The notes beneath the pieces were generated by a model. It made no database searches. It was given only the letters and a program-made list of their open reading frames with translations, and was not told the origin of the DNA. From Vicinamibacterales bacterium (lineage in GTDB: Bacteria; Acidobacteriota; Vicinamibacteria; Vicinamibacterales; UBA8438), in contig OZ242003.1 of the NCBI GenBank assembly GCA_965204675.1, forward strand, positions 5,901,295 through 5,965,294: 64,000 bases of DNA, given 5' to 3'. Positions 5,828 through 56,779 of the stretch are shown here, piece by piece; the first letter of the stretch is position 1, and each line of letters starts with the position of its first letter. A program made the translations under genes and the position numbers.

Positions 5828-6105
5828 CGCCCGGCGGGGCCCTGCCCAGGTGACGAGCGTCGCCGCAATGTCCGGCGAGTTCCGGCGATGCCGATGCGGG
5901 GCGCCTCGGAGTCGACGCGCATCGACGCGCATCGGCACGCCCCCGAACCCGCAACCCCGTCCAGCCCACGCCGCCCTGTCCTTGTTTACCGAGAGGAACA
6001 GTGCCACAATACACGGTAACCGAGAGGATCGGGACCATCGAGGCAACCATCGGGTGACCGGACCGTCGTACCTTGCACGGGACGGCTGACTGACGGAGGA
6101 GGGTC

Positions 6106-12218: not shown

Positions 12219-12362
12219 CGCGCGAGCGCCACCAGCCGCCGTCCGATGCCCCGGCGCGGTTGCCGTACGGGTTCCCCTGCCGGCACGGCCCGCGATATGA
12301 TCACGACCCGTTGCGGCCATCCGCGACGTCCGCAATCCACCACACAGCCAACGGAGCCCGTC

Positions 12363-13799
12363 ATGCACTTCGCACGAACGCTCGGAACGACCGTCCTGAT
12401 CATCACCGCCGCGGCCCTTCCGGCCGCGGCGCAGGTGGAGCCCCTGGCCGACCCCATTCCCGACCCGATCCTGAAGGGCGACCTGGTCGTGGCAGCGACC
12501 CCGTTCGTCCGCGCCCCGCGGACCGCGGACTCGGCCGTGGACGCGATGACGAACGAGGCCTACGCGCGCATCCAGTACCTGACGCCGATCGGGGACGGCT
12601 CGGGGCGTCTCGTCCTGAACGACCTGCGCGGGCTGCTGTACATCACCGACGAGAACGGGGCGGAGCCGGTGATCTACATGGATGTCCGCACCCTCGACAT
12701 CGGCTTCGACGACTCGATGTTCCCCAACGAGACCGGCCTCGTGGGGGTGGCGTTCCACCCGCAGTTCGCCGACGCCGGCACGCCGGGGTTCGGCAAGTTC
12801 TACACTGCGTACAGCGCCCGGTCGGACAGCGGCACCGCCGACTACCTGGACGACGACGCCGGGAGCCACGAGAGCGTGATCCGGGAGTGGACGGTCGACG
12901 ATCCGGCCGCGAACGCGTTCAGCGGCACGTCGCGCGAGGTCTTCCGCATCGGCCAGTTCGCCCCCAACCACAACGTCGGCACCATCGCGTTCAATCCGAA
13001 CGCGGCCCCGGGGTCGCCGGAGTACGGGTTGCTCTACGCCAGCCTCGGGGACGCCGGGGCCGCCCACGATCCCCGCGACTTCGGCCAGTCCCTCGCCGCG
13101 CCCCACGGCGCGATCATCCGCATCGACCCCCTCGGCGGCGACGGCAGCCGGGGCTACGGCGTTCCCGCCGACAATCCCTTCGTGGGCGAGGCGGGCGTCG
13201 CCCCCGAGATCTGGGCCTACGGCCTGCGGCACGCGCAGCAGTTCTCGTGGGACACGGACGGCCGGATGTTCATGGGCGACATCGGCCAGAACGTGGTGGA
13301 AGAGGTCAACCTGGGCGTGCCGGGCGCCAACTACGGCTGGCGCCTTCGGGAGGGCACGTTCGCCACCGGCTACACGCTCACCCCCCGGCGACCGGGACCC
13401 GTGTACCCGCCGCCGGCCGAGGACGACCATCCCTTCGTGCACCCGGTGGCCCAGTACGACCACGACGAGGGCTACGCCGTGAGCGGCGGGTTCGTCTACC
13501 GCGGCGAGGCCATCCCCGAGCTGCGGGGCCAGTACGTCTTCACCGACTTCCCGCGGGGCCGGGTGTTCTACATCGACGCCGACGGGCTCGTGCCCGGCCA
13601 GCTCGCCGAGATCCGGGAGCTGCGGCTGGTCATCGACGGCGAGGAGCGCGACCTCGTCGAGGCCGCCGGGATACGCAACACGTACGCCCCGGGCGACCGG
13701 GCCGACGCCCGCCTGGGCATCGACTCCGCGGGAGAACTCTATCTGCTGACGAAGAGCGACGGCTGGGTCCGGAAGCTGGAGCCGGTGGGAGCACGCTAG
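12363..13799 (+). CDS. Exported PQQ-dependent sugar dehydrogenase (GSDH/sorbosone-type beta-propeller)
   Basis: Signal peptide; GLVGVAFHPQF, NHNVGTIAF, IPADNPF-like motif, EIWAYGLRH, DIGQNVVEEVN and GANYGW. Confidence 0.85.
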   Translation: MHFARTLGTTVLIITAAALPAAAQVEPLADPIPDPILKGDLVVAATPFVRAPRTADSAVDAMTNEAYARIQYLTPIGDGSGRLVLNDLRGLLYITDENGAEPVIYMDVRTLDIGFDDSMFPNETGLVGVAFHPQFADAGTPGFGKFYTAYSARSDSGTADYLDDDAGSHESVIREWTVDDPAANAFSGTSREVFRIGQFAPNHNVGTIAFNPNAAPGSPEYGLLYASLGDAGAAHDPRDFGQSLAAPHGAIIRIDPLGGDGSRGYGVPADNPFVGEAGVAPEIWAYGLRHAQQFSWDTDGRMFMGDIGQNVVEEVNLGVPGANYGWRLREGTFATGYTLTPRRPGPVYPPPAEDDHPFVHPVAQYDHDEGYAVSGGFVYRGEAIPELRGQYVFTDFPRGRVFYIDADGLVPGQLAEIRELRLVIDGEERDLVEAAGIRNTYAPGDRADARLGIDSAGELYLLTKSDGWVRKLEPVGAR

Positions 13800-18462: not shown

Positions 18463-20631
18463 CTACGCCAGCCCCGCCTGACGGAGCAGGAACGCGTACT
18501 GCAGCGCTGTCTCGCGGTAGCGGCGGTAGCGGCCGGAGACGCCGCCGTGGCCGGCGTCCAGGTTGGTCTTGAGCAGCAGCGGACGGGTGTCGGTCTTCAG
18601 GGCGCGCAGCTTCGCCACCCACTTCGCGGGCTCCCAGTACTGCACCTGGGAGTCGTGCAGGCCGGCGAGGACGAGCAGGGCGGGATAGTCGCGGGCAGTG
18701 ACGTTGTCGTAGGGCGAGTAGGCGAGGATGTCGTCGAACGCGGCGCGCTCGCGGGGATTGCCCCACTCGTCGTACTCGCCGGTGGTCAGGGGAATGGAGT
18801 CGTCGAGCATGGTCGTCAGCACGTCGACGAACGGGACCTGGGCGACCGCGCCGGCGAAGAGGTCGGGGCGCAGGTTGAGGACCGCGCCCATCAGCAGCCC
18901 GCCGGCGCTGCCGCCCATGGCGTAGAGGCGGTCGGACCGCGTGTAGCCCTGGCGGACGAGGTGCTCGGCGCAGGCGATGAAGTCGGTGAACGTGTTCCGC
19001 TTGCGGCCCAGGCGCCCGTCGTCGTACCAGTGCCGGCCGAGCTCCTGCCCCCCGCGCACGTGGGCGATCGCGAACCGGAAACCGCGGTCGAGCAGGCTCA
19101 GCCGCGCCGAGTTGAACGCGGGGTCCATCGAGATCCCGTAGGCCCCGTACCCGTACAGCAGCAGCGGTCGCGTCCCGTCCCGCGGCGTGCCGGCCCGCGC
19201 GACGAGCGAGATGGGCACCTGCCGCCCGTCGGAGGCGGTCGCGAGCACCCGCTCGGCCGCGTAGTCCGCCGGGTCGAAGCCTCCCAGCACCTCCTGACGC
19301 TTCAGCAGGGTGCGCGAGCGCGCCTCCATGTCGTAGTCGTAGGTCGACCGCGGCGTGGTCAGCGACTCGTAGCCGAACCGCAGCAGGCGGGTGTCGGCCT
19401 CGCGGTTCACCGACACGTGCACGTCGTAGACCGGCTCGTCGAAGGCGATGTCGTGCGCGCCGTCCCCCGACCAGGGACGCACGTGCAGTCGGCTCAGGCC
19501 GCCGCGACGCTCCTGCAGCACGAGATGGCCGCGGAACAGCGCCAACGACTCGAGGAGCACGTCGTCGCGGTGCGGCACCACCTCGACCCACCGCTCGGGC
19601 GGGGTCCCGGCGGCGCCGGTTTCCATCAACCGGAAGTTGCGGGCGCGGTGGTTGGTGCGCACGTAGAAGCGGTCGCGATAGTGGTCGACGTCGTACTCGT
19701 GGTCGCGCTCGCGGGGCCAGAACACGTCGAACGCGCCGTCGGGCCGGTCGGCGTCGAGCAGCCGGTACTCGGTGGACACCGTCTGCGCCGACGCGATCAG
19801 CAGGTAGCGTTTCGACCGGCTTTTCCCCACCTCGCAGTTGAACGTCTCGTCCGCCTCCTCGTAGACGAGGACGTCCTCGGCCTGCGGGGTGCCCAGCGTG
19901 TGCCGCCAGACCTGGTGCCAGCGCAGCGTCTCGGGATGCTGGCGCGTGTAGAAGAGGGTGCGGTTGTCGTTGGCCCAGACGAGGTTGCTCGTCACGCCCG
20001 CCAACTCGTCCTCGAGCAGGGCATCGGCGGCCAGGTCCTTCACACGGATGGTGTGGATGCGGCGGCCTTCGACGTCGATCGCATAGCCGAGCAGGCGCCC
20101 GTCGGGGCTGACCTCCAGCGCCGACACCTGGCAGAAGTCGTGCCCCTCGGCCAAGGCGTTGACGTCAAGCAGAACCTGCTCCTCATCGACCGCTGTCGGG
20201 GCGTCAGCCAGCCGCCGGCAGTGGATGGGGTACTCCCGCCCGTCCTCGTATCGGGTGTAGTAGAGGTGCTCGCCCTCCCGGTACGGCACCGACATGTCGG
20301 TCTGCTTGATGCGCCCCTTGATCTCGGTGAACAGGGTCTCCTGCAAGTCCTCGGTCGGCGCCATCACCGCCTGCGTGTAGGCGTTCTCGGCCTCGAGATG
20401 GGCGGTGACGGCGGGGTCGCCGCGCTCGCGCAGCCAGTGGTAGTCGTCGACGCGCACCACGCCGTGCGTCTCGTGGCGCACGGGAGAGACCCGCGCCCGC
20501 GGCGCGGGAATCCCCGCCGTGGAGAGCGCCGCCGGCGAGGGAGGCCCGACCGCCGTCACCGCGTCTTCACCGGCAACGTCCCCGGCGGGTGGAGCACCTG
20601 CCGGACGTGTCGAAGGCTCGCCCGCCGTCAC
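18463..20631 (-). CDS. ptrB: Oligopeptidase B (peptidase S9A)
   Basis: RVDDYHWLR, LYGYGAYG, HVRGGQELG, GGSAGG (Ser), YDEWGNP, GLHDSQVQYWEPAKW and AGHGG. The start is GTG 20631 or 20559. Confidence 0.92.
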   Translation of the reverse strand: MTAGEPSTRPAGAPPAGDVAGEDAVTAVGPPSPAALSTAGIPAPRARVSPVRHETHGVVRVDDYHWLRERGDPAVTAHLEAENAYTQAVMAPTEDLQETLFTEIKGRIKQTDMSVPYREGEHLYYTRYEDGREYPIHCRRLADAPTAVDEEQVLLDVNALAEGHDFCQVSALEVSPDGRLLGYAIDVEGRRIHTIRVKDLAADALLEDELAGVTSNLVWANDNRTLFYTRQHPETLRWHQVWRHTLGTPQAEDVLVYEEADETFNCEVGKSRSKRYLLIASAQTVSTEYRLLDADRPDGAFDVFWPRERDHEYDVDHYRDRFYVRTNHRARNFRLMETGAAGTPPERWVEVVPHRDDVLLESLALFRGHLVLQERRGGLSRLHVRPWSGDGAHDIAFDEPVYDVHVSVNREADTRLLRFGYESLTTPRSTYDYDMEARSRTLLKRQEVLGGFDPADYAAERVLATASDGRQVPISLVARAGTPRDGTRPLLLYGYGAYGISMDPAFNSARLSLLDRGFRFAIAHVRGGQELGRHWYDDGRLGRKRNTFTDFIACAEHLVRQGYTRSDRLYAMGGSAGGLLMGAVLNLRPDLFAGAVAQVPFVDVLTTMLDDSIPLTTGEYDEWGNPRERAAFDDILAYSPYDNVTARDYPALLVLAGLHDSQVQYWEPAKWVAKLRALKTDTRPLLLKTNLDAGHGGVSGRYRRYRETALQYAFLLRQAGLA

Positions 20632-23600
20632 GGCGTCTTCACCGGCGGGGCGGGGCGCGTGGGCAGCGGCCGCGGGTCCTCCCGGATCATCCGGGTGATC
20701 TCCGCGATGGCCCGCTCGAGTTGGGGGTCGCCGCCCGCGATGACCGACTTCGGGTCGTTCTCGACCTCGATGTCGGGCTCGACCCCGTAGCCCTCGATGA
20801 CCCAGCTCCCGTCGCGGCCGGCGGTGCCGAACTCGGGCACGTTGACGGAACCCCCGTCGATGAGCGGCCCGCGGTTGGTGATGCCGATGACGCCGCCCCA
20901 CGAGCGCTTCCCGATGAGCGGCCCGAGGCCCGCCGCCTTGAAGCGGGCGGGGAAGATGTCGCCGTCCGAGGCGGAGTCCTCGTCGAGGATGCACACGAGG
21001 TGGCCGGTGAACACCGTCGTGGGATAGGTCTCGGTGTTCTCCACCGTCCGCGAGAAGCCGGTGCCGAGGAGCTCGCGGCTCAGGCGCTGGATGAGCATCG
21101 CCGACACGTTGCCGCCCCCGTTGCCGCGCACGTCGATGATCAGGCCGTCCTTGCGGATCTGGCCGTAGAAGTACTTGATGAACTCCTGGATGCCGGCGAC
21201 GCCCATGTCGGGGATGTGCAGGTAGCCGACCCGCCCCTCCGTCGCCGCGTCGACCTTCATCCGGTTCGCGGTCACCTCGTCGAGGTAGCGCAGGTTGGTC
21301 TCGCTCGTGACGGGCCGGATGGTCACCTCGCGCGCCGCGCCCTCGGCGGCGGGGAACGCCGGCGCCGTGCTCAGGGTCAGCCGCACCGGGCGGTCCGCCT
21401 TGTGCCGCAGCAGGCGGTAGGGGTTGTCGCCGCCCGCGAGCTCCTCGCCGTCGATGGCGAGCACGTAGTCGCCGACGCCGGCGTCCACCCCGACCTCGGT
21501 CAGCGGCGCCCGGTAGCGCGGCTCCTCGTTGTGCCCCTCGAAGATCTCGGCCAGCCGGTAGCGGCCGGCGTCGCGGTCGAGCTCGAACACGGCCCCCGGC
21601 AGGGCCACCGGGGGCCGATCCGGGGTCTCCCAGTCGCCGCCGGCGATGTAGGCGTGGCTGACGCTCAGCTCCGCCACCATCTCGCCGATCACGTAGTTCA
21701 GGTCCGACCGGTGGGCAACGTGCTCGAGCCACGGGCGGTACTGCTCGCGCAGGGCCTCCCAGTCGTAGCCGTGCATGTTGTCGACGTAGAAGAAGTCGCG
21801 GAAGCGCCGCCACACCTCGTCGAAGATCTGCTCCCACTCCTCGGCCGGCACCCGGTCCACCATCAGCCCCGCCGTGGACACGGTGTCCGGGTCGCCGGCG
21901 CCCGAGGCGTTGTGCAACTGGAAACGCCCCCCGGTGGCGACGAGCACCTTCTCGCGGTCGCCGGACACCGCGTAGCCGCCGACGTTCGCGGCCAGCGTCT
22001 CGGTCTCGCGATCCTCGAACGAGAAGGTCTGCACCTCGGTCGGGACGTCGCCGCCGCGCCCGTAGAACTGCGCGCCGGTGCGGATGAAGAACACCCGGTC
22101 GTTGCCGGCGCTCAGCCCCACGTAGTTGTCGAACGTGACGGGCAGCCGGACGACCCGCCGCGCGAGGCCGTCGAACTCGATGCGGATCGGCCCCTCGTCG
22201 TCACCGTCGGCCGACGCGTCGTCGTCCCCGTCGTCCCCGCCCTCGTCCCCGGCGTCGTCGTCCGCCTCCACCGTCACCTCGTCGCTCTCCGGCGGCAGGG
22301 GGTGCGGCACGTCCTTCCGCAGGGCCAGCGCGTAGATGCCGGTCTCGCGGTCGACGAGGTAGTTCCACTCGAACGACCCGAGCTGGGGGGTGAACGAGCG
22401 GTCCGACAGGTAGTAGAGGTACTCGCCGTCGGGGTCCCAGGCCGGGTTCCACTCGTGGAACAGGTCGCTCGTCACCTGGCGCGACTCCCCGCCGGCCCGC
22501 TCCCAGACGTGGATCGAGCTGAAGCCGGTGTCGTCGGTCAGCGAGAACGCGAGGTAGCCGCCGCGCGGCGACCACACGTGGTCCTGGAGCTGCCCGTTCG
22601 CCTCGTCGGCGACGAGCGTCGACTCCCGCGACTCGACGTCGAGGACGTAGAGGCGGCCGTCCTTGTCGCTGAACGCCAACTGGTCCCCGTCGGGTGACCA
22701 CGACGGCGCGTACCGCATCGCCTCGCCGCCGTCCGTGAGCTGCTCGGCGGGGCCGCTGCCGTCCTGCGGCACGACGTAGATCTCGTCCTCGCCGTCGCGG
22801 TCCGAGACGAACGCGATGCGCGAGCCGTCGGGCGACCAGCGCGCCCACTTGTCGTGGGCGTCCGAGCTGCGGGTGAGGTTGCGGGTCGGGCCGTTCTCGA
22901 TCGGCGCCGTGAACACGTCGCCGCGGGCCACGAACAGGGCGCGCTCGCCCTTGGGGCTCAGCTCGAAGTCCTCGATCTGCCCCGCCGCCGACACCCGCGC
23001 CGGCCGCGCCGCCACCCCGTCGTCGGGCACCACGATGGGAATCGGCCGCGACTCGCCGCCGTCGATGCTGTAGAGGTGCAGCTCGCCGTTCATCTCGTAG
23101 ACGATCCGGTTCGCGCCGTCGTCGCCGGGCCACCGCACGTCCCACTGCGTGCTGTCGGTGAGCTGCGCGGTCTGGCCGCCGCCGAGGTCGAACCTGTACA
23201 GGTTCAGGGTGCCGTCGCGGTCGGACGTGAAGTAGATGGCGTCGCCGATCCACATCGGGTCGCGGTCGGCGCGCGGATGGTCGGTGACCCGCTCGACGTC
23301 GTGGGTCTCGCGGTCGAACACGTAGAGCTCCTGCGCCCAGCCCCCCTCGTAGCGCTTCCACGTCCGGAAGTCGCGGAACAGCGGCGAGTACACCACCCGG
23401 GTGCCGTCCGGGGAGAGGTCCCCCGCGCCCGACTCGGGCATCGGCAGGGGCACGGGGAGCCCCCCGTCGGTCGAGGCGAGGAAGAGACGGCTGTCCGACA
23501 GGTCGGTGCTGTAGCGCAGCGACCGGAACAGCACCGACCCCCCGTCCGGGGTCCAGTCGTAGACCTGGTTGTCGTAGCCCCAGCGCGGCGCGAGCGGCCC

Positions 23601-23924
23601 GCGGGCCGGATACCACGTCAACTGCCGCGGCACGCCGCCCGCCGTCGGCACGACGTAGACCTGCTCGTCGCCGTCGTACTGACCCGTGAACGCGATCCAC
23701 TGCCCGTCGGGAGAGAACTTCGGGAAGATCTCCAGCCCCGGGTGGGCAGTCACCCGCACGGCCGTACCGCCCGCCGTCGGCACGGTCCACAGGTCCCCCG
23801 CGTACACGAACACGATGCGGTCGCCGTGCACGTCCGGGAACCTCAACAGCCGGGTCTGGGCGCCGGCCGGCGCTGCCATCGCGACGAGCGTTACCAATGC
23901 CGCCAGATATCGAACTGTCCTCAT
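20628..23924 (-). CDS. Tricorn-type protease (S41), exported
   Basis: Signal peptide; LLRFPDVHGDRIVF, TolB-like propellers, PDZ region, GYLHIPDM, IDVRGNGGG and SASDGD. Confidence 0.92.
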   Translation of the reverse strand: MRTVRYLAALVTLVAMAAPAGAQTRLLRFPDVHGDRIVFVYAGDLWTVPTAGGTAVRVTAHPGLEIFPKFSPDGQWIAFTGQYDGDEQVYVVPTAGGVPRQLTWYPARGPLAPRWGYDNQVYDWTPDGGSVLFRSLRYSTDLSDSRLFLASTDGGLPVPLPMPESGAGDLSPDGTRVVYSPLFRDFRTWKRYEGGWAQELYVFDRETHDVERVTDHPRADRDPMWIGDAIYFTSDRDGTLNLYRFDLGGGQTAQLTDSTQWDVRWPGDDGANRIVYEMNGELHLYSIDGGESRPIPIVVPDDGVAARPARVSAAGQIEDFELSPKGERALFVARGDVFTAPIENGPTRNLTRSSDAHDKWARWSPDGSRIAFVSDRDGEDEIYVVPQDGSGPAEQLTDGGEAMRYAPSWSPDGDQLAFSDKDGRLYVLDVESRESTLVADEANGQLQDHVWSPRGGYLAFSLTDDTGFSSIHVWERAGGESRQVTSDLFHEWNPAWDPDGEYLYYLSDRSFTPQLGSFEWNYLVDRETGIYALALRKDVPHPLPPESDEVTVEADDDAGDEGGDDGDDDASADGDDEGPIRIEFDGLARRVVRLPVTFDNYVGLSAGNDRVFFIRTGAQFYGRGGDVPTEVQTFSFEDRETETLAANVGGYAVSGDREKVLVATGGRFQLHNASGAGDPDTVSTAGLMVDRVPAEEWEQIFDEVWRRFRDFFYVDNMHGYDWEALREQYRPWLEHVAHRSDLNYVIGEMVAELSVSHAYIAGGDWETPDRPPVALPGAVFELDRDAGRYRLAEIFEGHNEEPRYRAPLTEVGVDAGVGDYVLAIDGEELAGGDNPYRLLRHKADRPVRLTLSTAPAFPAAEGAAREVTIRPVTSETNLRYLDEVTANRMKVDAATEGRVGYLHIPDMGVAGIQEFIKYFYGQIRKDGLIIDVRGNGGGNVSAMLIQRLSRELLGTGFSRTVENTETYPTTVFTGHLVCILDEDSASDGDIFPARFKAAGLGPLIGKRSWGGVIGITNRGPLIDGGSVNVPEFGTAGRDGSWVIEGYGVEPDIEVENDPKSVIAGGDPQLERAIAEITRMIREDPRPLPTRPAPPVKTP

Positions 23925-24003
23925 GACGTTTTCTCCGGGCGCCCGGCCAGCCGCGCCGGACCGCCCCTTGCTTCTCCGGTGGGCTCCCCCCACCGTTTCC
24001 GTC

Positions 24004-27000
24004 CTACTCGGACCGCAGCGACGCCAACAGCGGCGACCGCACCGCGGCGGCGGTGGCGGCCAGCGACGAGGCGAGGCCGGCCGCGGCCACCGCGAGCAGC
24101 ATGCCGCCCAGCCCCACGACGGGGAACTGGCCGCCCCGCTCGATCCACGCCGGGGCTATCGCCACGACCGCGCACACCGTGCCGATGGCGAGGCCGCCGA
24201 ACAGGAGCAGGCCGTTCTCGACCAGCACCATCAGCGACACGTGCCGCGTGTCGTAGCCCACGGCGCGCAGCAGGGCCAGCTCGCGCCGCCGCTCCAGCAC
24301 GTTCCTGAGCAGCACCGCCCCCAGCCCCAGCGTCCCCAGCAGGAGGCCGAGGGCCCCCAGGGTCTGGAACGTGGCGAGGTAGGTGTTGTTGACGCGGTGG
24401 AAGGCGGCGAGGCGCTCCGGCGTCGAGGTGACGTCGAACCCGTAGTCGGCGAGCCGGTCCTCGAGGGCCGCGGTCGCCTCCGCGGTCCGGTCCACCGGCG
24501 TGTCCACGAGGAAGAAGCGGTACCCGTCGTGCTCGGGGAACAGGCGCAGGAACGCCGCCTCGCCGACGATCAGCTCGCGCTGGAAGATGCTGTCGGAGAG
24601 GGCCGCGACGATGCGCAAGGTGACGGGGTTGTCGCTCTCCCGGTTGAGCACGAAGTCGTCGCCCACCGAGAGGTGCAGCGCGTAGGCCAGCGACGTCGCG
24701 TCGGCGATGGCGGGGACCGCCCCGTCGTCGAAGACGCGGTCGAGGAGCAGCCAGGGGTTGGCGGCCTCCTCTTCCGTCTCGGCCAGCGTCGCCCCGAACC
24801 GGAAGCGCCCCTCCGGCAGGAACGCCGCCTCGGGCGCGAGCAGCCGCGGGTCCTTCGCCTGGTAGAGGTTGAGGCAGCTCGTGTCCTCGCCCGGCCGCAG
24901 ACGGAACCGCGCGTAGGACACATCGGCGAAGATCTCGTCGTCGAACGACGACACCCCCAGCTCTTCCCGCTCGTCCTCCGACCCGAGGTCGCGGACGATC
25001 GGCAGCAGCGACTCGGCCAGGAGCGGATAGCCGCCGGTGCCCGACGACCGGCCGCCGACGTCTCCCCCACCCTCGAGATGGAAGGCGTCGACGGCCACGA
25101 TGATGAACGAGGCGAACGCGATGAGGGTGATGCACAGGACGGAACGGCCGGGGCGGGCCGTGGTGTTGCGCAGTCCGACCCGGGACACCGTCCACGTCGA
25201 CGGCGCCGCCACGCCGGCCGGCGCCTGCCGGCCCAGCCACGACCACGACAGCGTGAGCAGCGACGCCAGCAGCAGCATGCCCGCCCCGAAGAAGCCGGCG
25301 GTGTCGCCGACGACGCCGGCCACGGTCACCGCAAGCACGGCTGCGCCGAGCAGCCCGAGGACGGCGGGGGCGTGGCGCGCGGCGGCGGCGGCGCGCGAAG
25401 GCGGCGCGTCCCCGTCGCCATCGCCGGGCGACGCGACGGCCCCGGACGAGGGCAGCACGCCGTGGATGAGGGCGCGCGGGGTCGCCCGCGCCACCATGCG
25501 CAGGCTCCACGCGATGGACACCACCGCCGCCGCCATGCCGCCGCCGATGCCCGCGGCGAGGGCGACGGGCGACACGTGCAGCACGAGCAGGGTGGTGCCC
25601 ACCGCGTCGACCCACCACGTGCGCAGGCCCCACATGATCAGCTCGGCGTAGCCCACCGCGCCGGCCGCCCCCACGAGCCCCCCGACGAGAGAGAGGGCCC
25701 CCGCCTCCGCCCAGAACAGCCGCCGCACGCTCCCCTCGTCGAAGCCGAGGGCGCGCAGGGCGCCGATCTCGCGCAGGCGCTGCTCGACCCCGAGGCGGAA
25801 GAAGAGGCTCGCGAGCAGCAGGGCCGACACCACGAGGAAGAAGCTGAAGTAGGTGAAGTACTCGCCGAAGTCGGTCACCCCGGCCGACGCCTCGAGGGCG
25901 AGGTCGCGGGCGGGATAGACGACGAAGCCGGCCCCGAGGGGATCGAGCCGGGGCCGGAGCGCGTCGCGGAAGGCCGCCGCCGCGAGGTCCGAGACCCCGT
26001 CCGGCGGAAAGACCCGTAGCGAGGTCACCTGTCCCCACCGGGAGCCCCAGAGCCGCTGGCCGTCCTCGAGGGCGATGAACCCCTTCGACGCGGTCCGATA
26101 CTCGTCCCAGTAGTCCTCGTCCTTCGGGCGCACGAGGCCGAGGTCGATGGGGAACGGCGGGTCCCAGTCGGACAGGTCCGTGGCCTCGGTGATGCCGGGG
26201 TACTCCGGCGCGAGGTCCTGGTCGACGGCCAGCCCCGCCATCGGCACCACCCCGGCCACCCGGAAATCGGCGGTCTCGGTGACCAGCGCGCCCGCCTCTT
26301 CCCACAGGTAGTACTGCAGGGTCACCGTATCGCCGGGCGCCGCCTCGAGATCGTCGGCCGTCCACGCGTTCAGCCAGATCGGCGGCGGTGCCTCGTCGGC
26401 CGCCTCGCCGCCGGCGACAGGGGCGGTCGGCGCCACCGCGGCGACGGGCGGCGCGACCTGTCCGCGAGCCGGGTCGGCGCCACCGCGCGGGCCGGCGCCG
26501 AGCGGGGTCCCCGCGGCGGGCGGCGCGACCTGTCCGCCGGCCGGGCCGGCGGCCCCGCCCGGGTCGGGGCCGAGTGGAACCCCCGCGCCGGACGCCGCGT
26601 CTCCCGGCGGGGCGACGCCCAGCGACGCGAGATCCAGCGCGGTCACCAGCGAGTACGGCGTGACCCGCTCGCCCCGCCGGATCTCGTTGGCCAGATAGGT
26701 CAGGATGGGTTGCTCGCCCAGGTCGCCGCCCGCGGTCGCGGCCCGCGCGGCGGCGACGACGTCGTCGTTCAGCAGCCCCGCCGTCGACTCCACCGCCAGG
26801 GCGCCCGGCCCCGGAAGCGCCCGCACCCGCAGACCGAGGTCGCCGAGCTGCGTGGTGGCCCGCAGGGCCGCCTCGATGCCGGCCACCGCCGGCGCCCCCG
26901 CTCCGACCCCCGCTAGCAGCAGGGTGTTGGCTTCGCGGCCCAGCTCGAGGTCGCGCTGCATGCGCTCGAGATTGACGAAGACGGCGCGCGAGAACCCCTG

Positions 27001-27702
27001 CTGGGGCCGGAACGAGAACTCCCCCAGGTCGGCGGGGGCGAGCACCTCGCGGATGCCCAGCCGCATCGTGCTCCCCAGGTCGTCGCGCCGCCCGTGCAAC
27101 GAGCTGACGGGGATGGCCGAGGGCTTCTGCACCCGAACGAGCAGCGTGTCCTCGGCCGCCGCGCCGAGCTCGCGGGCGAGGCCGCCGCTCACCAGCACCT
27201 CGCCGGGCCCGGGTCCGCGCCCGCCGTCCAGGGCCGCGCCGTCGGGCCTGCCGTCTGGCCCGCTGCCAAGCCCGCCGTCAGGCCCACCGTCAGTTGTGTT
27301 GAAGGCCCAGAACCGGTCGTCCACCCCGTAGACCTGGATGCCGCCGGCGCGGCTGCCGCTCTCCTGGTGGGTGACGAAGCCCTCGAGCGCGATCATCGGC
27401 ACCGCCGTCGCCGCCGCAGGCGACCCTGCCGCCGGCGACGCGCCGGCCGCGGAGCCGCCGAGCGCGTCGGAGGCCACCACCTCCTCGGCGAGCGCCTCCC
27501 GAAAGAACGCGCCGGCCGTCACGACGTGGTCGACGCTCCCCAGCCGCTGCAGGGCGAGGTCGCGCAGGCTGGCCCGCACCGACGTCCCCACCAGGAACGC
27601 CCCCGCGAGCACCGACACCGCCACGCCGACCCCGGCGACCACCGCGAGGTTGATCCGCCAGAAGTGGGTCAGGCTCCGGAGCAGCAGGGTGATGGAGGTC
27701 AT
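24004..27702 (-). CDS. Large fused double FtsX/MacB-like ABC permease
   Basis: FWRINLAVVAGV TM start, large periplasmic domains, EQRLREIGALRALG and ERRRELALLRAVG FtsX motifs. Confidence 0.85.
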   Translation of the reverse strand: MTSITLLLRSLTHFWRINLAVVAGVGVAVSVLAGAFLVGTSVRASLRDLALQRLGSVDHVVTAGAFFREALAEEVVASDALGGSAAGASPAAGSPAAATAVPMIALEGFVTHQESGSRAGGIQVYGVDDRFWAFNTTDGGPDGGLGSGPDGRPDGAALDGGRGPGPGEVLVSGGLARELGAAAEDTLLVRVQKPSAIPVSSLHGRRDDLGSTMRLGIREVLAPADLGEFSFRPQQGFSRAVFVNLERMQRDLELGREANTLLLAGVGAGAPAVAGIEAALRATTQLGDLGLRVRALPGPGALAVESTAGLLNDDVVAAARAATAGGDLGEQPILTYLANEIRRGERVTPYSLVTALDLASLGVAPPGDAASGAGVPLGPDPGGAAGPAGGQVAPPAAGTPLGAGPRGGADPARGQVAPPVAAVAPTAPVAGGEAADEAPPPIWLNAWTADDLEAAPGDTVTLQYYLWEEAGALVTETADFRVAGVVPMAGLAVDQDLAPEYPGITEATDLSDWDPPFPIDLGLVRPKDEDYWDEYRTASKGFIALEDGQRLWGSRWGQVTSLRVFPPDGVSDLAAAAFRDALRPRLDPLGAGFVVYPARDLALEASAGVTDFGEYFTYFSFFLVVSALLLASLFFRLGVEQRLREIGALRALGFDEGSVRRLFWAEAGALSLVGGLVGAAGAVGYAELIMWGLRTWWVDAVGTTLLVLHVSPVALAAGIGGGMAAAVVSIAWSLRMVARATPRALIHGVLPSSGAVASPGDGDGDAPPSRAAAAARHAPAVLGLLGAAVLAVTVAGVVGDTAGFFGAGMLLLASLLTLSWSWLGRQAPAGVAAPSTWTVSRVGLRNTTARPGRSVLCITLIAFASFIIVAVDAFHLEGGGDVGGRSSGTGGYPLLAESLLPIVRDLGSEDEREELGVSSFDDEIFADVSYARFRLRPGEDTSCLNLYQAKDPRLLAPEAAFLPEGRFRFGATLAETEEEAANPWLLLDRVFDDGAVPAIADATSLAYALHLSVGDDFVLNRESDNPVTLRIVAALSDSIFQRELIVGEAAFLRLFPEHDGYRFFLVDTPVDRTAEATAALEDRLADYGFDVTSTPERLAAFHRVNNTYLATFQTLGALGLLLGTLGLGAVLLRNVLERRRELALLRAVGYDTRHVSLMVLVENGLLLFGGLAIGTVCAVVAIAPAWIERGGQFPVVGLGGMLLAVAAAGLASSLAATAAAVRSPLLASLRSE

Positions 27703-28418
27703 GGTCGTCCGCTCCCCGTCGTCTCGCCGCCGGCGGCGACGTTCTCGTCACCGTCCACGCGCTTCAGCCCCAGGCCCTCGAGCCGGTAGCGGATGGGGCA
27801 CCGCGCCGCCAGCTCGACGTTGTGGGTCACCACCAGCAGCACCGTCTCCTGCCCCCCGTGCAGGTCGAACAGCATGTCGGCCACGACCTCGCCGGCGGCG
27901 CGGTCGAGGTTGCCGGTGGGCTCGTCGCACAGCAGCAGCGGCGGGCGGCGGATCAGGGCGCGGGCGAGGGCGACGCGCTGGCGCTCTCCCCCGGACAGCT
28001 CGGCGGGACGGTGGTCGAGCCGGTCGGCGAGGCCCGCCCGCCCCAGCAGCTCGCGGGCGCGGTCCCCCGCCCCGTCCACCGGGTCCCCCACCAGGGTCGG
28101 CACCAGCACGTTCTCGAGCACCGTGCACTGCGGCAGCAGCAGGTGGTCCTGGAAGACGAAGCCGACGCGGCGGTTGCGAAACGCCGCGAGCTCGGCCGAC
28201 GCGAGGGCGAACGGGTCGACGCCGTCGAGGGTGACGCTGCCCGCGGTGGGCGGCTCGAGGGCGCCCAGGATGTAGAGCAGGGTGCTCTTCCCGCTGCCCG
28301 ACGGCCCCACGATGGAGGCCGCCTCACCGGGTCTCAGCGCGAAATCGACCCCGGAGAGGATGTCGAGGGCGCCCCGCGGCGTCGGATACGACTTCGCGAG
28401 GCCGGTGACTTCGAGCAC
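27699..28418 (-). CDS. LolD/MacB-type ABC ATP-binding protein
   Basis: GPSGSGKST, GFVFQDHLL, LSGGERQR and LLCDEPTGNLD; ATGA overlap with the permease. Confidence 0.92.
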   Translation of the reverse strand: MLEVTGLAKSYPTPRGALDILSGVDFALRPGEAASIVGPSGSGKSTLLYILGALEPPTAGSVTLDGVDPFALASAELAAFRNRRVGFVFQDHLLLPQCTVLENVLVPTLVGDPVDGAGDRARELLGRAGLADRLDHRPAELSGGERQRVALARALIRRPPLLLCDEPTGNLDRAAGEVVADMLFDLHGGQETVLLVVTHNVELAARCPIRYRLEGLGLKRVDGDENVAAGGETTGSGRP

Positions 28419-28461: not shown

Positions 28462-29886
28462 CTACGACGCCTGCTGGAACGCCCGGGGACGGAACAGGAA
28501 GTCCACGATGTTCCCCTCGTGCGGCTGCAGCCAGTTGAGCCGGGTCGTGGGCACGGGGCCGAGGTTGAGCCGGTCGATGTTGCGGGCGTCGAGCAGGGCC
28601 CGCGAGAACGCCGGGTCCCCGGTCAGGCCGGTCGCCACGAGGGTCGTCCCGATCGCCCGGATCATCTTGTCCTGCGGGCACTCGACGACGGTGACGAAGG
28701 GGTACATGTACTCCTTCTTGGCCATCGCAACGTCGGGCGAGCCGCAGTGCACGACGGTGGGGCGCAGGTAGTCGCAACGCTCCATCGAGACGAGGCGGCC
28801 GCCGTCCTGGTGGCGCGCCGACACCTCCTCGACCCCGTCCTCCTTGAGGGCGTTGTCGATGTCGGCGGAGACCGCCGGCGCCTGCCCCGGCACCGTGAAC
28901 GCGGCCAGCTCGGCCTTGGGGTCGTCGGGGGGCAGGGGGGCGATGGGGCCGATGCGCTCGGCCACCGCCTCGGCGATCTTGCGGGTGTGCCGCGACGCCC
29001 AGATGCCCGAGCAGTTGATGCAGCCCCGCCCGCTGTTGATGGCCACGCTCTCGACCATCAGGTCGAGATACCGCTCCCAGTCGTCGACCACGTCGTCGCC
29101 GATGAGGATCTTGCTGAACCCGGGCCCGTGCACCTGGACGCCGGGGTTGGCGGCGTACTGCTCGACGGTGGCGGTGCCCCCGAAGATGAGGCTCCGCGGC
29201 GAGTTGTTCAGCACCGCGGCGCCGACCTCGCCGAGCCCCGGGTAGAGGGCGATGGCCTCGCGCGGCACCCCCGCCTGGAAGAACGCCTGGGCCATCCGCC
29301 ACGGGGTCCACGGCTCCTGCGGCCCCGGCTTCAGCACCAGCCCGATCTGCAGCGGGATGATCGGCAGCCACAGGCTGTGCACCCCGGGCGAGTTCGACGG
29401 CAGCACCATGCCGAGCACCGGCGTCGTCGCCTGGTAGCTGCGCATCACCCCGTCCTCCTCCCCGTAGCCGCGGGTGAGGATGTCGTAGTCGAGGCGGCGG
29501 GTCAGCGAGCGCAGGACGTCGTCGAGGTGGGTCAGCACGTACTCGAGCTTGCCCATGTTCATGCGGCACAGGTGCTCGGGCAGCCCCGTCGTGGCCGACT
29601 GCTGGCGCACGAAGTCGTCGGGCGTCTGCACGCCGTCGCCCAGCGGCAGATCCGCCGACTTGAAGAGCTCGCCGCCCTTCTTGACCATCGCCAGCAGGTC
29701 CGCGCACGGAATCTCCCGCAGCACGTCGCGGGCCCGGTTCGCCCCCTTCCTCAGGTCCCGGGCGACGATGCCGGGGTTGGCCTGGCTGACCTCGGCCACC
29801 GGCTCGCCGGTCAGGAAGTGCTCGACCTTGGCGAGCTCGAGGCTCTTGTACTCCTGTCCCCAACGCAGAATCGGAAAGTGGATCAC
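28462..29886 (-). CDS. Aldehyde-dehydrogenase-fold acyl reductase (EhpG/GriD/LuxC-like)
   Basis: VLPSNSPGV, LVLKPG, IFGG, HGPGFSK, NSGRGCINCS (catalytic Cys position) and EYMYPF. Confidence 0.75.
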   Translation of the reverse strand: MIHFPILRWGQEYKSLELAKVEHFLTGEPVAEVSQANPGIVARDLRKGANRARDVLREIPCADLLAMVKKGGELFKSADLPLGDGVQTPDDFVRQQSATTGLPEHLCRMNMGKLEYVLTHLDDVLRSLTRRLDYDILTRGYGEEDGVMRSYQATTPVLGMVLPSNSPGVHSLWLPIIPLQIGLVLKPGPQEPWTPWRMAQAFFQAGVPREAIALYPGLGEVGAAVLNNSPRSLIFGGTATVEQYAANPGVQVHGPGFSKILIGDDVVDDWERYLDLMVESVAINSGRGCINCSGIWASRHTRKIAEAVAERIGPIAPLPPDDPKAELAAFTVPGQAPAVSADIDNALKEDGVEEVSARHQDGGRLVSMERCDYLRPTVVHCGSPDVAMAKKEYMYPFVTVVECPQDKMIRAIGTTLVATGLTGDPAFSRALLDARNIDRLNLGPVPTTRLNWLQPHEGNIVDFLFRPRAFQQAS

Positions 29887-29887
29887 G

Positions 29888-30994
29888 TCAGTACACTCCC
29901 ACCGTGGTCGCCGACGCGAGCCGGCTGAACGGGCGCACCCCGCTCACCCCGTCCCATGGATACTGCTCGCACGGCGGCTCGCGCTCGCCCTCGTCGCGCT
30001 CCTGGAAGCGCGGCACGAAGAACTCCTTCGTCAGCGTCGTCAGCATCACCCGGCCGGTCTCGCCGTACCCGACCACGCGGTCCGCGTCGTCGGGGTCCAC
30101 GACCTGCAGGACGGCCCGCGGCTGCGGCGCGTAGTAGGTGATCTTGTAGCCGTTCTCGGGGCCGCTCGGGGGGCTGCCGGCGAGGCCCATGAGGGTGTTG
30201 CCGTAGGTCGGTGTCATGTAGATGCCGTCGAGCAGCTCCTCGTGGGCGAAGCGGTTCCACTGCGGCGTGAACTCGGTGCCGCCGGCGAAGATGCCGGTGA
30301 TGCCGGTGTCCTTCAGGCACGACCCGTCGGCCTCGAGGCGGTTGGCGAGGGCCTCGAGCAGCTTGGGGGTCGAGAACAGGCACCTGATGTCGTGCCCGGC
30401 CGACAGCACCGTGATCGCCTGGTCGATGACGTGGTCCTGGTAGGCCTTCAGGTGCTCCATCCAGCCCTTCTTGATGAGCTTGATGACCCACCGTGGATCG
30501 AGGTCCACGCAGAAGCAGATGCCGCCCCGGTGCTGGGCGAGGTGCTCGACCGCGAGCCGCAGCCGCCGGGGGCCGCTCGGCCCCAGCATGAGCCAGTTGC
30601 TGCCCTTCGGGAAGTGCTCGTCGGGCAGGGTCTCCGAGAACAGCTCGTAGTCGATGCGGAAGTCCTCCTGGGCGACCCGGCTCTTGGGGATGCCGGTGGT
30701 GCCGCCGGTCTCGAACACGAACGTCGGCCGGTCGGCGTAGGCCCTGGGCACCCAGCGGCGGACGGGGCCGCCCCGCAGCTTCTCGTCCTCGAAGTGGGGG
30801 AACTTCGCGAGGTCGTCGAACCCGTGGACCTCGCCCCGCGGGTCCCACCCCGCGTCGCGCGCCCAGTCGAGCCAGAACGGACACCCGGTGTCGGGGTTGA
30901 AGTGCCACTCGACGATCTCGCGCACCCAGGCGTCGAGCGCCGTCCTCGCCTGGGCCGCCCTGGTCTCAGCCGTGCTGCTCTCCGTAGTCATCAA
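29888..30994 (-). CDS. EhpF/GriC-like adenylate-forming enzyme (truncated ANL fold)
   Basis: WHFNPDTGCPFW, FETGGTTGIPK (P-loop), DLDPRWV, GGTE, TYGNT, GETGRVMLT and ERD. These motifs match my recollection of Pantoea EhpF (WHFSKETGSPFW, ESGGTTGAPK, DIDPRWV). Confidence 0.75.
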   Translation of the reverse strand: MMTTESSTAETRAAQARTALDAWVREIVEWHFNPDTGCPFWLDWARDAGWDPRGEVHGFDDLAKFPHFEDEKLRGGPVRRWVPRAYADRPTFVFETGGTTGIPKSRVAQEDFRIDYELFSETLPDEHFPKGSNWLMLGPSGPRRLRLAVEHLAQHRGGICFCVDLDPRWVIKLIKKGWMEHLKAYQDHVIDQAITVLSAGHDIRCLFSTPKLLEALANRLEADGSCLKDTGITGIFAGGTEFTPQWNRFAHEELLDGIYMTPTYGNTLMGLAGSPPSGPENGYKITYYAPQPRAVLQVVDPDDADRVVGYGETGRVMLTTLTKEFFVPRFQERDEGEREPPCEQYPWDGVSGVRPFSRLASATTVGVY

Positions 30995-31069
30995 CCCATG
31001 ATCCTACACTAGTAGTCGACGGCGCGGCCCGGGGTGGTGGTCCGGCCGACAATCGGGGAGCGTGAACGA

Positions 31070-31546
31070 ATGGGACGTCTGGAACGGATCTGGGTGAAAC
31101 GGTTCCACCGCGGCCCGATGGACCCGGTTGACGCCGCCGACCTCCGGCGAGGCGCCGGCATCGTGGGCAACGCCAACCAGGGGGGCTGGCGACAGGTCAC
31201 GATCATCGCGGCCGCCGACTGGGACCGCGTCGTCGAGGCGCTCGCGACGGCGGTCGACCCTGGAGAGAGGCGCGCCAACCTGCTCGTCAGCGGGGTCGCC
31301 CTCGCGCACACCCGCGACCGCGTCCTGCAGGTGGGCGGCTGCCGGCTGCGGGTGCGCGGCGAGACCCGCCCCTGCGAGCGGATGGACGAAGCCGAGCCGG
31401 GCCTGCGCGCCGCCCTCGACCCCGGGTGGCGGGGAGGCGTGTTCGCCGAGGTGCTCGACGACGGCCGCATCGTCGTCGGCGACCCCGTCGCGTGGACGGA
31501 ACCGGCGCCGTCAGGCGAGGGCCGCGGTCAGACCGACTCGAGCTGA
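31070..31546 (+). CDS. MOSC domain protein
   Basis: RQVT, RRANLLVSG, ETRPCERM and GGVFAEVLDDGRIVVGD. Confidence 0.85.
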   Translation: MGRLERIWVKRFHRGPMDPVDAADLRRGAGIVGNANQGGWRQVTIIAAADWDRVVEALATAVDPGERRANLLVSGVALAHTRDRVLQVGGCRLRVRGETRPCERMDEAEPGLRAALDPGWRGGVFAEVLDDGRIVVGDPVAWTEPAPSGEGRGQTDSS

Positions 31547-31863
31547 TCCGTCTTGGCCGCGAAGACGAAGTCGCTCTCCGTCAGGCCGTCGATCTTGTGC
31601 GTCCAGATGGTGACGGTGGCCCGACCCCACGCCAGCAGGATGTCGGGATGGTGGCCCTGCTCCTCGGCCATCTCGCCGACCCGCACCGTGAAGTCGAGGG
31701 CCCGGCGGAAGTCCTCGAAGCGGTAGGTCTTCTCGAGGTGGTGCCCGTCGACCACCTCCCAGCCCCCGCCGAGCTGCCGCTGGTACCCGGCCAGCTCCTC
31801 GCCGGCGAGGGGCGGGACCCCGCCCCGGCAGGGCACGCACTGCTTCGACGCGAGCTCGCTCAT
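31528..31863 (-). CDS. phhB: Pterin-4-alpha-carbinolamine dehydratase
   Basis: LASKQCVPC, KTYRFEDF, GHHPD and WTHKIDGLTESDFVFAAK. Confidence 0.92.
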   Translation of the reverse strand: MSELASKQCVPCRGGVPPLAGEELAGYQRQLGGGWEVVDGHHLEKTYRFEDFRRALDFTVRVGEMAEEQGHHPDILLAWGRATVTIWTHKIDGLTESDFVFAAKTDQLESV

Positions 31864-31950
31864 GCGTCTTCCTCCGATGCCGGTCATGCCGGCACAGGCA
31901 CTATCATAGTGGGTTGGACTGCCGATCGCGACTCCTCAGGAGGCTCACCG

Positions 31951-56740: not shown

Positions 56741-56779
56741 CCCGAACCTCCTCACGTCTTCCGAACCAGACAAGCGCGC

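Follow-up and report, generated by a model that had tools for sequence, protein, structure and literature searches.

A probable EhpF/EhpG-type two-protein carboxylate reductase within an undescribed multi-gene system of Acidobacteriota and Planctomycetota

Two-protein carboxylate reductases of the EhpF/EhpG type have, to our knowledge, been described only from two antibiotic or pigment pathways, in which they are rare tailoring enzymes, and their mechanism has hardly been studied, the record comprising one subunit structure and one enzymology paper. In the D-alanylgriseoluteic acid cluster of Pantoea agglomerans, an adenylating protein of about 366 amino acids (aa) that has no ANL C-terminal domain (EhpF; PDB ID: 3HGU, 3HGV, and 3L2K) is followed by an aldehyde dehydrogenase (ALDH)-fold protein of about 473 aa (EhpG). 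The same two-gene layout is found in a 64,000-nucleotide stretch (hereafter, the window) of the chromosome of a sponge-associated acidobacterium of the order Vicinamibacterales (contig OZ242003.1, positions 5,901,295 to 5,965,294), where an EhpF-like adenylating protein (P0001) is encoded directly before an ALDH-fold protein (P0002). With a probability of roughly two in three, the two proteins together constitute a carboxylate reductase of the EhpF/EhpG–GriC/GriD type, which operates in a multi-gene system and not in a secondary-metabolite cluster. In the grixazone pathway of Streptomyces griseus, GriC is reported to form the acyl-adenylate (acyl-AMP) of 3-amino-4-hydroxybenzoate (3,4-AHBA), which GriD then converts to the aldehyde by reduction (PMC10179220), and this reported mechanism is the one proposed for the window pair.

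An earlier note, made from the sequence of the window, had described a 368-aa adenylation-type open reading frame (ORF) one nucleotide from an ALDH-fold ORF with a cysteine in NSGRGC and had assigned the two to the EhpF/EhpG (GriC/GriD) type. Both ORFs, their motifs, and their spacing are as described, and the assignment agrees with the structural database, in which EhpF is the only strong solved relative of P0001: it is matched (3L2K/3HGU) with an E value of 2e-41 over residues 12-357 of 368, while the next chains score about 0.01. A profile built from 20 family members strengthens the match to EhpF to 1e-126 and reaches PaaK at 2e-9. P0001 carries the motifs ETGGTTGIPKS, TYGNT, and QERDEGE, and their core elements (TGGTTGxPK, YGxT, and ERD) are kept throughout the EhpF-like family, which has 296 representatives at E ≤ 1e-30 in a library of 1.84 billion proteins. 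The C-terminus of P0001 coincides with the end of EhpF, leaving the ANL N-terminal domain only, without the usual C-terminal domain. General family models describe the protein poorly: Pfam (scanned for both proteins at E ≤ 0.1) returns a weak AMP-binding match and nothing else, and the NCBIfam matches to PaaK/F390 models reach 11.7-27.6 bits against cut-offs of 300-700 (27.6 against 458.7 bits).

P0002 is a divergent ALDH. Its sole Pfam match is Aldedh (8e-17), its best PDB chain scores 2.5e-13, and its AlphaFold2 model (mean pLDDT of 91.5) shows a complete ALDH fold, with TM scores of 0.75-0.80 to many ALDHs at 14-19% identity. BLASTP aligns residues 56-470 with EhpG of the Pantoea ehp cluster (E 1e-26, 24% identity), and the partner of a haloarchaeal P0001 homolog aligns end to end (E 1e-35). 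P0002 contains the motif NSGRGCINCSG. Three of its residues, namely Cys289, the oxyanion residue Asn165, and Glu392, do not vary among 80 clade members, EhpG, and the partner proteins from Burkholderia, Streptomyces, and Halalkalicoccus. The general-base Glu of hydrolytic ALDHs (Glu268 in ALDH2 numbering, located in ELGGKS) has no aligned counterpart in P0002: its column is a gap in the alignment to PDB ID: 3B4W, the local motif reads H253-G-P-G-F-S-K, and ELGGKS is replaced by (H/Q/Y)GPGxSK across the EhpG-like family. Retention of the nucleophile together with loss of the water-activating base is what would be expected of an enzyme converting a thioester to an aldehyde.

Taken with EhpF and EhpG, the window proteins thus show full-length homology (31.5% and 24% identity, respectively) and share the invariant residues, including the reductase Cys; the enzyme type of the pair is well supported by these sequence comparisons. 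The pair would very probably turn a carboxylic acid into an aldehyde, using ATP and NAD(P)H but no coenzyme A (CoA). P0001, as an ANL core without the C-terminal lid, would activate a free carboxylic acid to the acyl-adenylate, the acyl group would move to Cys289 of P0002, and P0002, devoid of the hydrolytic Glu, would reduce the resulting thioester with NAD(P)H and release the aldehyde. Indirect support for aldehyde formation comes from two proteins (P0229, 824 aa, and P0257, 725 aa) in which a distant EhpF-like domain (35-36% identity) is fused to the C-terminal side of a class-III aminotransferase or a Zn-dependent alcohol dehydrogenase (Zn-ADH), both of which consume aldehydes. The chemistry proposed here is carried over from GriC/GriD and from these fusions to a pair whose homology, residues, gene coupling, and co-inheritance were observed. 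The coupling is tight: the two genes are adjacent, and often overlap, in 88 of the 99 loci compared, and they are also adjacent in Pantoea, Burkholderia, S. goshikiensis, and Halalkalicoccus. Further indirect support for aldehyde formation is given by a gene for an iron-dependent alcohol dehydrogenase (Fe-ADH), which lies directly 3' of the pair in Planctomycetota and in many Acidobacteriota.

Several better-known enzymes resemble the pair in part. LuxE/LuxC likewise combine a short acyl-activating enzyme with an ALDH-superfamily reductase and take a free acid to the aldehyde without CoA; for the window pair, however, there is no luciferase or LuxD, the solved structure closest to P0001 is that of EhpF, with PaaK next, and neither LuxE (PF04443) nor LuxC (PF05893) was matched in the Pfam scan of P0001 and P0002. 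PaaK and the coenzyme F390 synthetase-like proteins form the next-nearest solved family, yet PaaK possesses a C-terminal domain (AMP-binding_C_2) absent from P0001 and makes CoA thioesters. Membership in the LuxE/LuxC and PaaK families was ruled out by the Pfam and NCBIfam scores, the PDB ranking, and the phylogenetic tree. The carboxylic acid reductases (CARs), such as Car from Nocardia, catalyze the same net reaction (acid, ATP, and NADPH to aldehyde) with an adenylation–carrier–reductase (A-PCP-R) architecture; they depend on a phosphopantetheine arm and an R domain of the short-chain dehydrogenase/reductase type, whereas the window pair has no carrier domain and an ALDH-fold reductase with a catalytic Cys.

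The setting of the window pair differs from that of its annotated relatives. Plasmid-borne relatives of P0001 are 31-40% identical to it, and every annotated relative examined is located among genes of chorismate-derived or polyketide aromatic pathways: phz/ehp genes in Pantoea; DAHP synthase, isochorismatase, and an anthranilate-synthase-like gene in Burkholderia; and DAHP synthase, ADC synthase, and isochorismate synthase, or a type I polyketide synthase (PKS) with aromatic hydroxylases, in Streptomyces. Identity to P0001 is 35-37% for the Streptomyces homologs annotated as 'arylcarboxylate reductase' (a comparison made through homologs named by annotation and not with GriC/GriD themselves); they belong to aromatic secondary-metabolite clusters, where the neighbor of some is not an ALDH but a type I PKS. 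EhpF/EhpG of Pantoea are encoded on a plasmid inside a phz-type cluster, while the window pair is chromosomal and its partners are of other kinds, namely an ATP-binding cassette (ABC)/FtsX system, a family 4 glycosyltransferase (GT4), and beta-propellers. As had been stated from the sequence, no phz, PKS, or nonribosomal peptide synthetase gene occurs in the window, which holds for every large ORF scanned, and PhzA/B (PF03284) was not found in the complete, single-contig genome of 6.77 Mb. A phenazine link was rejected on this ground. No phenazine, 3,4-AHBA, or other chorismate-derived cluster setting surrounds the pair in this genome, a result that concerns the context and not the enzyme type.

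On the strength of its sequences, the pair is a member of a distinct, slow-evolving clade common to Acidobacteriota, Planctomycetota, and Aminicenantes. In the maximum-likelihood tree, P0001 falls within a clade with 100/100 support, and a PaaK-like protein of the same genome, used as the outgroup, is extremely distant. Identity to P0001 within the clade ranges from 58 to 99% (median 76%), and 135 of the 368 positions are at least 97% invariant among 89 members. A scan of genome contigs yielded at least 589 relatives (72-99% identity) in metagenome-assembled genomes of Vicinamibacterales, other Acidobacteriota, Pirellulales, Gemmataceae, and Aminicenantes, and the two genes are adjacent, well beyond chance, in loci from over 100 genomes of other species, with 58-99% identity for the adenylating protein and 61-99% for the ALDH partner. 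According to whole-genome searches, 77 of the 301 Acidobacteriota genomes and 41 of the 201 Planctomycetota genomes carry the EhpF-like gene, nearly always as a single copy; in one acidobacterial locus (L084, G218:C4:20700-40699), a GT4 gene lies between two EhpF-like genes, which are separated by 3.7 kb and share 73% and 67% identity with P0001.

The pair had also been called an orphan, and this description is misleading: it stands at the head of a tight operon that continues with genes for an ABC ATPase and a giant FtsX permease (Table 1), belongs to the conserved clade, and is co-inherited with GT4, FtsX, and a HemN-like radical SAM enzyme (rSAM). The minus-strand gene run was picked by a third-position GC filter; in a window of 71% G+C, third-position GC amounts to 0.96-0.97 in the frames of P0001 and P0002, which is a strong coding signal. 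The stop codon of P0001 and the GTG start of P0002 are separated by the single base 29887. An alternative ATG start of P0001 at 30991, one codon past the TTG, would give 367 aa and is most likely the true start, as nearly all homologs have this length. The ATPase matches ABC_tran (4e-34) in Pfam and, in NCBIfam, LolD (3e-69) and YbbA (2e-59), both under the cut-offs. The permease contains two FtsX domains, and its hydropathy profile predicts extracytoplasmic domains of about 570 and 240 aa. A promoter and terminator scan gave no signal exceeding the shuffled background.

Clustering of the ORFs of the 99 loci, with co-directional neighbors scored, shows which genes accompany the EhpF-like gene most often. 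After the ALDH partner, these are the giant FtsX permease (50 loci), beta-propellers of the PQQ_2 type (49), the ABC ATPase (37), a GT4 with an N-terminal CxxC (24), a DUF4399 lipoprotein inserted between the EhpF-like and ALDH genes (21), the Fe-ADH (14), and the rSAM (12). The DUF4399 lipoprotein is small and His-rich (e.g., L013:11198-11692 and L023:11219-11746). In several Acidobacteriota (L093-L101), all parts form a single cluster, in which the gene order is propeller, propeller, EhpF-like, ALDH, Fe-ADH, propeller, rSAM, and propeller, and after the last propeller it continues with a TonB-dependent receptor, an FAD enzyme, a sodium:solute symporter, GT4, and ABC genes.

Co-inheritance was assessed with four queries (EhpF-like, GT4, FtsX, and rSAM) over the same 301 Acidobacteriota genomes, with Fisher tests for GT4 and rSAM and with the C-terminal 598 aa as the FtsX query. 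In counts uncorrected for shared ancestry, the EhpF-like and GT4 genes occur together in 74 genomes, the former only in 3, the latter only in 4, and neither in 220 (p 2e-61). The corresponding figures are 75, 2, 7, and 217 for FtsX, and 63, 14, 3, and 221 for rSAM (p 5e-47). Carriers belong to dozens of families, and non-carriers occur among them even inside one order. Beyond this set, an rSAM ortholog is present in all five genomes of other lineages tested (Pirellulales, Gemmataceae, Aminicenantes, and Thermoanaerobaculia). The co-inheritance turns the operon tie of the window pair to ABC/FtsX into a link at the level of a system and places GT4 in the same core. Four Acidobacteriota genomes (G242, G182, G207, and G262, of which G242 is 99% complete) contain GT4 and giant FtsX orthologs, two of them also rSAM, and no EhpF-like gene; in these, the reductase may have been replaced by something else or the EhpF-like gene missed.

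System orthologs that are clustered in other genomes are dispersed in the genome of the window (Table 1). One module about 64 kb upstream of the pair comprises a propeller, an rSAM, an FAD enzyme, and a PaaK-like ligase, and is followed by a flavin amine-oxidase-like gene. The FAD enzyme can be regarded as a true homolog of the flavin halogenases, as judged by its match to CndH (1e-66), further matches to Bmp2, PltA, and CmlS, and the motifs GWFWYIPL (WxWxIP), the Lys, and FLDPVFSSG. The propeller is of the exported PQQ_2 type; in other genomes it shares a cluster with the pair, as do the rSAM and the halogenase. A 58%-identical homolog of the PaaK-like ligase is located about 5 kb from the pair in L069. 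The operon, the conserved clade, and the co-inheritance together indicate that the pair is part of a dispersed multi-gene system and not the leftover of a secondary-metabolite cluster. On comparative sequence evidence, it is best explained as the most conserved element of a putative system composed of the CxxC-type GT4, the LolD-like ATPase with the giant FtsX permease, and exported beta-propellers of the pyrroloquinoline quinone (PQQ)-like type, to which most genomes would add the Fe-ADH, the HemN-like rSAM, and the CndH-type flavin halogenase. The result is a known enzyme type within a new, undescribed system; no named pathway fits, in line with the expectation that the pathway is an undescribed one.

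The most likely route would lead from an acid to the aldehyde, through the Fe-ADH to the alcohol, and on to a glycosylated product handled by the ABC/FtsX machine at the cell envelope. The leading candidate for the substrate is an aromatic, possibly halogenated, acid, which is put somewhat short of even odds and is favored by family precedent along with the phenol/pyrrole-type halogenase, the HemN-like enzyme, and the PaaK-like ligase. A wider proposal can be made only tentatively and is improbable in its full extent. According to it, Acidobacteriota, Planctomycetota, and neighboring phyla would share an unrecognised envelope system, dispersed over the chromosome, with the pair as its most conserved core. 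In this system, a specific acid (probably aromatic, and halogenated and C-methylated where the halogenase and HemN-like modules are present) would be reduced by the EhpF/EhpG-type enzyme, and the product would be glycosylated by the CxxC-type GT4 and handed by the giant double-FtsX ABC machine to the exported PQQ-like propellers; the final compound might be a new small-molecule cofactor, a redox shuttle, or an envelope constituent, but not an antibiotic. A number of points weigh against the reductase assignment, its setting, or the aromatic substrate. The clade stands on a long stem, apart from the EhpF-type aryl-acid enzymes (EhpF and the Streptomyces and Burkholderia proteins) and from the haloarchaeal protein. 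Its motif G-P-R-R-L-R-L replaces the G-P-H-(I/V/F)-V-G of those enzymes (GPHIVG in EhpF), so the substrate may differ and may carry extra negative charge; we take this stretch to be ANL motif A4, which lines the acyl pocket, the profile alignment to 4-chlorobenzoate-CoA ligase having ended short of the region. The co-inheritance was counted without regard to shared ancestry, and the rSAM module is frequent but not obligatory, given the 14 EhpF-positive genomes without it. Expression, a point in favor, is indicated by metatranscriptome contigs (from sponge, coral, and marine sources) that are 90-99% alike and cover the EhpF-like, ALDH, ABC, and FtsX genes, with one contig of 1485 nucleotides bridging the ALDH and ABC genes and another spanning the ABC/FtsX junction; they show presence in RNA libraries of close relatives and are no proof for this strain, and such contigs can contain DNA. 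A literature search returned neither a publication nor biochemical data on the clade, and papers about 'arylcarboxylate reductase' or about DUF4399 in this connection were likewise not found. Finally, the associated Fe-ADH scores best with ErcA and with lactaldehyde, sulfoacetaldehyde, and 4-hydroxybutyrate enzymes, all of which act on small hydrophilic aldehydes, and genes for sodium:solute symporters recur near the pair in bacteria and in Halalkalicoccus.

The last two observations, together with the Arg-rich GPRRLRL, which fits an anionic substrate, suit the main alternative to an aromatic acid, a small anionic aliphatic one. Here, a small carboxylate (e.g., a dicarboxylate, an amino acid, or a hydroxy or sulfo acid) would be imported through the symporter and the TonB receptor and converted by the pair and the Fe-ADH to a hydroxy compound serving as a GT4 acceptor or carbon source; GT4 relatives such as BshA, weakly matched, do take hydroxy acids as acceptors. 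Such assimilation or catabolism is unlikely, since the ATP cost of reducing a growth substrate would be unusual in catabolism, the halogenase, HemN-like rSAM, and PaaK-like ligase better suit aromatic tailoring, and the placement of the Arg motif in the acyl pocket is extrapolated from other ANL enzymes. The symporters and the TonB receptor, which indicate a soluble substrate, also speak against a lipid, the least supported of the three kinds of substrate. In a LuxE/LuxC-like scheme, a fatty or membrane-lipid carboxylate would become a fatty aldehyde or alcohol, be glycosylated by GT4, and be extracted or exported as a glycolipid by ABC/FtsX, as with DevBCA and the heterocyst glycolipids. The short adenylating protein with an ALDH-fold reductase does recall LuxE/LuxC, the tight linkage and co-inheritance with GT4 and a type VII ABC system of the MacB/Lol/YbbP kind would be accounted for, and the ATPase scores against DevA (9e-42); even so, the scheme is quite unlikely, as LuxE/LuxC Pfam matches are missing, all annotated relatives have aromatic-acid contexts, conserved fatty-acid or acyl carrier protein genes do not adjoin the pair, and the halogenase belongs to the phenol/pyrrole type. 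In the orphan reading, the pair would serve in tailoring a strain-specific phenazine- or grixazone-like metabolite, the cluster of which lies elsewhere or has been lost; this would agree with the sole characterised relatives, EhpF/G and GriC/D, being antibiotic or pigment tailoring enzymes. The absence of PhzA/B and the co-inheritance with GT4, the FtsX permease, and rSAM make this very improbable, and a conservation of 58-99% over two phyla, in 20-25% of the genomes, is contrary to what a strain-specific cluster would show. It is scarcely credible that the proteins do not act jointly, with P0001 as a ligase in its own right and P0002 as an ordinary dehydrogenase that oxidises aldehydes: the complete ALDH fold with catalytic Cys and Asn and the lack in P0001 of the C-terminal domain normally needed by ANL enzymes might suggest so, but the general-base Glu required for thioester hydrolysis is unaligned across the whole EhpG-like family, the genes are adjacent in nearly all loci and from Pantoea, Burkholderia, and Streptomyces to haloarchaea, and GriC/GriD are reported to act jointly. 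A reductase of the EhpF/EhpG type within a multi-gene system is thus the preferred reading of the pair.

The EhpF/EhpG type extends to a branch that is far larger and much more strongly conserved than the known members, present in about one quarter of Acidobacteriota and one fifth of Planctomycetota, which are abundant and poorly understood phyla of soil, marine, and symbiont communities. In Acidobacteriota, genes of this branch are inherited along with those of a glycosyltransferase and an ABC machine of the envelope, and the co-inheritance counts provide a concrete set of genes for joint study. Identification of the substrate would bring to light a metabolite or an envelope component that is widespread in these bacteria, and the pair would offer a CoA- and carrier-independent catalyst of acid-to-aldehyde conversion, which is of biotechnological interest.

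Table 1. The reductase pair, its neighbors in the window, and dispersed system orthologs in the same genome (positions refer to the window unless marked as genome; distances are from the pair)
Feature	Position	Strand	Remarks
P0001, EhpF-like adenylating subunit	29888-30994	-	368 aa from TTG; first gene of operon
P0002, EhpG-like ALDH-fold reductase subunit	28462-29886	-	474 aa; 1 nt after P0001
ABC ATPase, LolD/YbbA/MacB type	27699-28418	-	239 aa; 43-nt gap after ALDH gene
Giant double-FtsX permease	24004-27702	-	1232 aa; 4-nt overlap with ATPase gene
Tricorn-type protease	20628-23993	-	1121 aa; 10-nt gap after FtsX gene; Pfam Tricorn_C1, PDZ_Tricorn, Peptidase_S41, PD40
Prolyl oligopeptidase (S9)	18463 to about 20600	-	about 720 aa; downstream of tricorn gene
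MOSC-domain gene	31034-31546	+	between PCD gene and pair
Pterin-4a-carbinolamine dehydratase (PCD)	31528-31887	-	just upstream of pair
True PQQ-type dehydrogenase propeller	55037-56779	-	PF01011, 202 bits
Soluble glucose/sorbosone dehydrogenase-like protein	12219-13799	+	
Second, ordinary MacB-type FtsX permease	6094-8787	+	with MacB periplasmic core domain
Propeller, rSAM, FAD enzyme, PaaK-like ligase	genome C1:5864291-5870218 (L104:8291-14218)		about 64 kb upstream
Two large propellers			about 160 kb upstream
GT4 and propeller			0.5 Mb away
Fe-ADH ortholog			1.3 Mb away
DUF4399 lipoprotein ortholog	genome, about 6483883		

The window neighbors of the pair are the ABC/FtsX system, peptidases, and MOSC, PCD, and AcrB genes. 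The tricorn protease occupies the position after the FtsX gene in the closest loci only, and in some relatives an S9 peptidase directly follows the FtsX gene; as the linkage is limited to the nearest relatives, membership of the tricorn protease in the system is doubtful, and both it and the prolyl oligopeptidase were dropped as system parts. In 19 Vicinamibacteria loci, the PCD gene immediately precedes the EhpF-like gene and points in the same direction. It was not used as a hint of an aromatic amino-acid substrate: the complete genome encodes no pterin-dependent aromatic amino-acid hydroxylase (PF00351), which leaves the PCD an 'orphan', and the MOSC gene intervenes on the other strand. In view of both, the PCD link looks like lineage synteny or a matter of the molybdenum cofactor.

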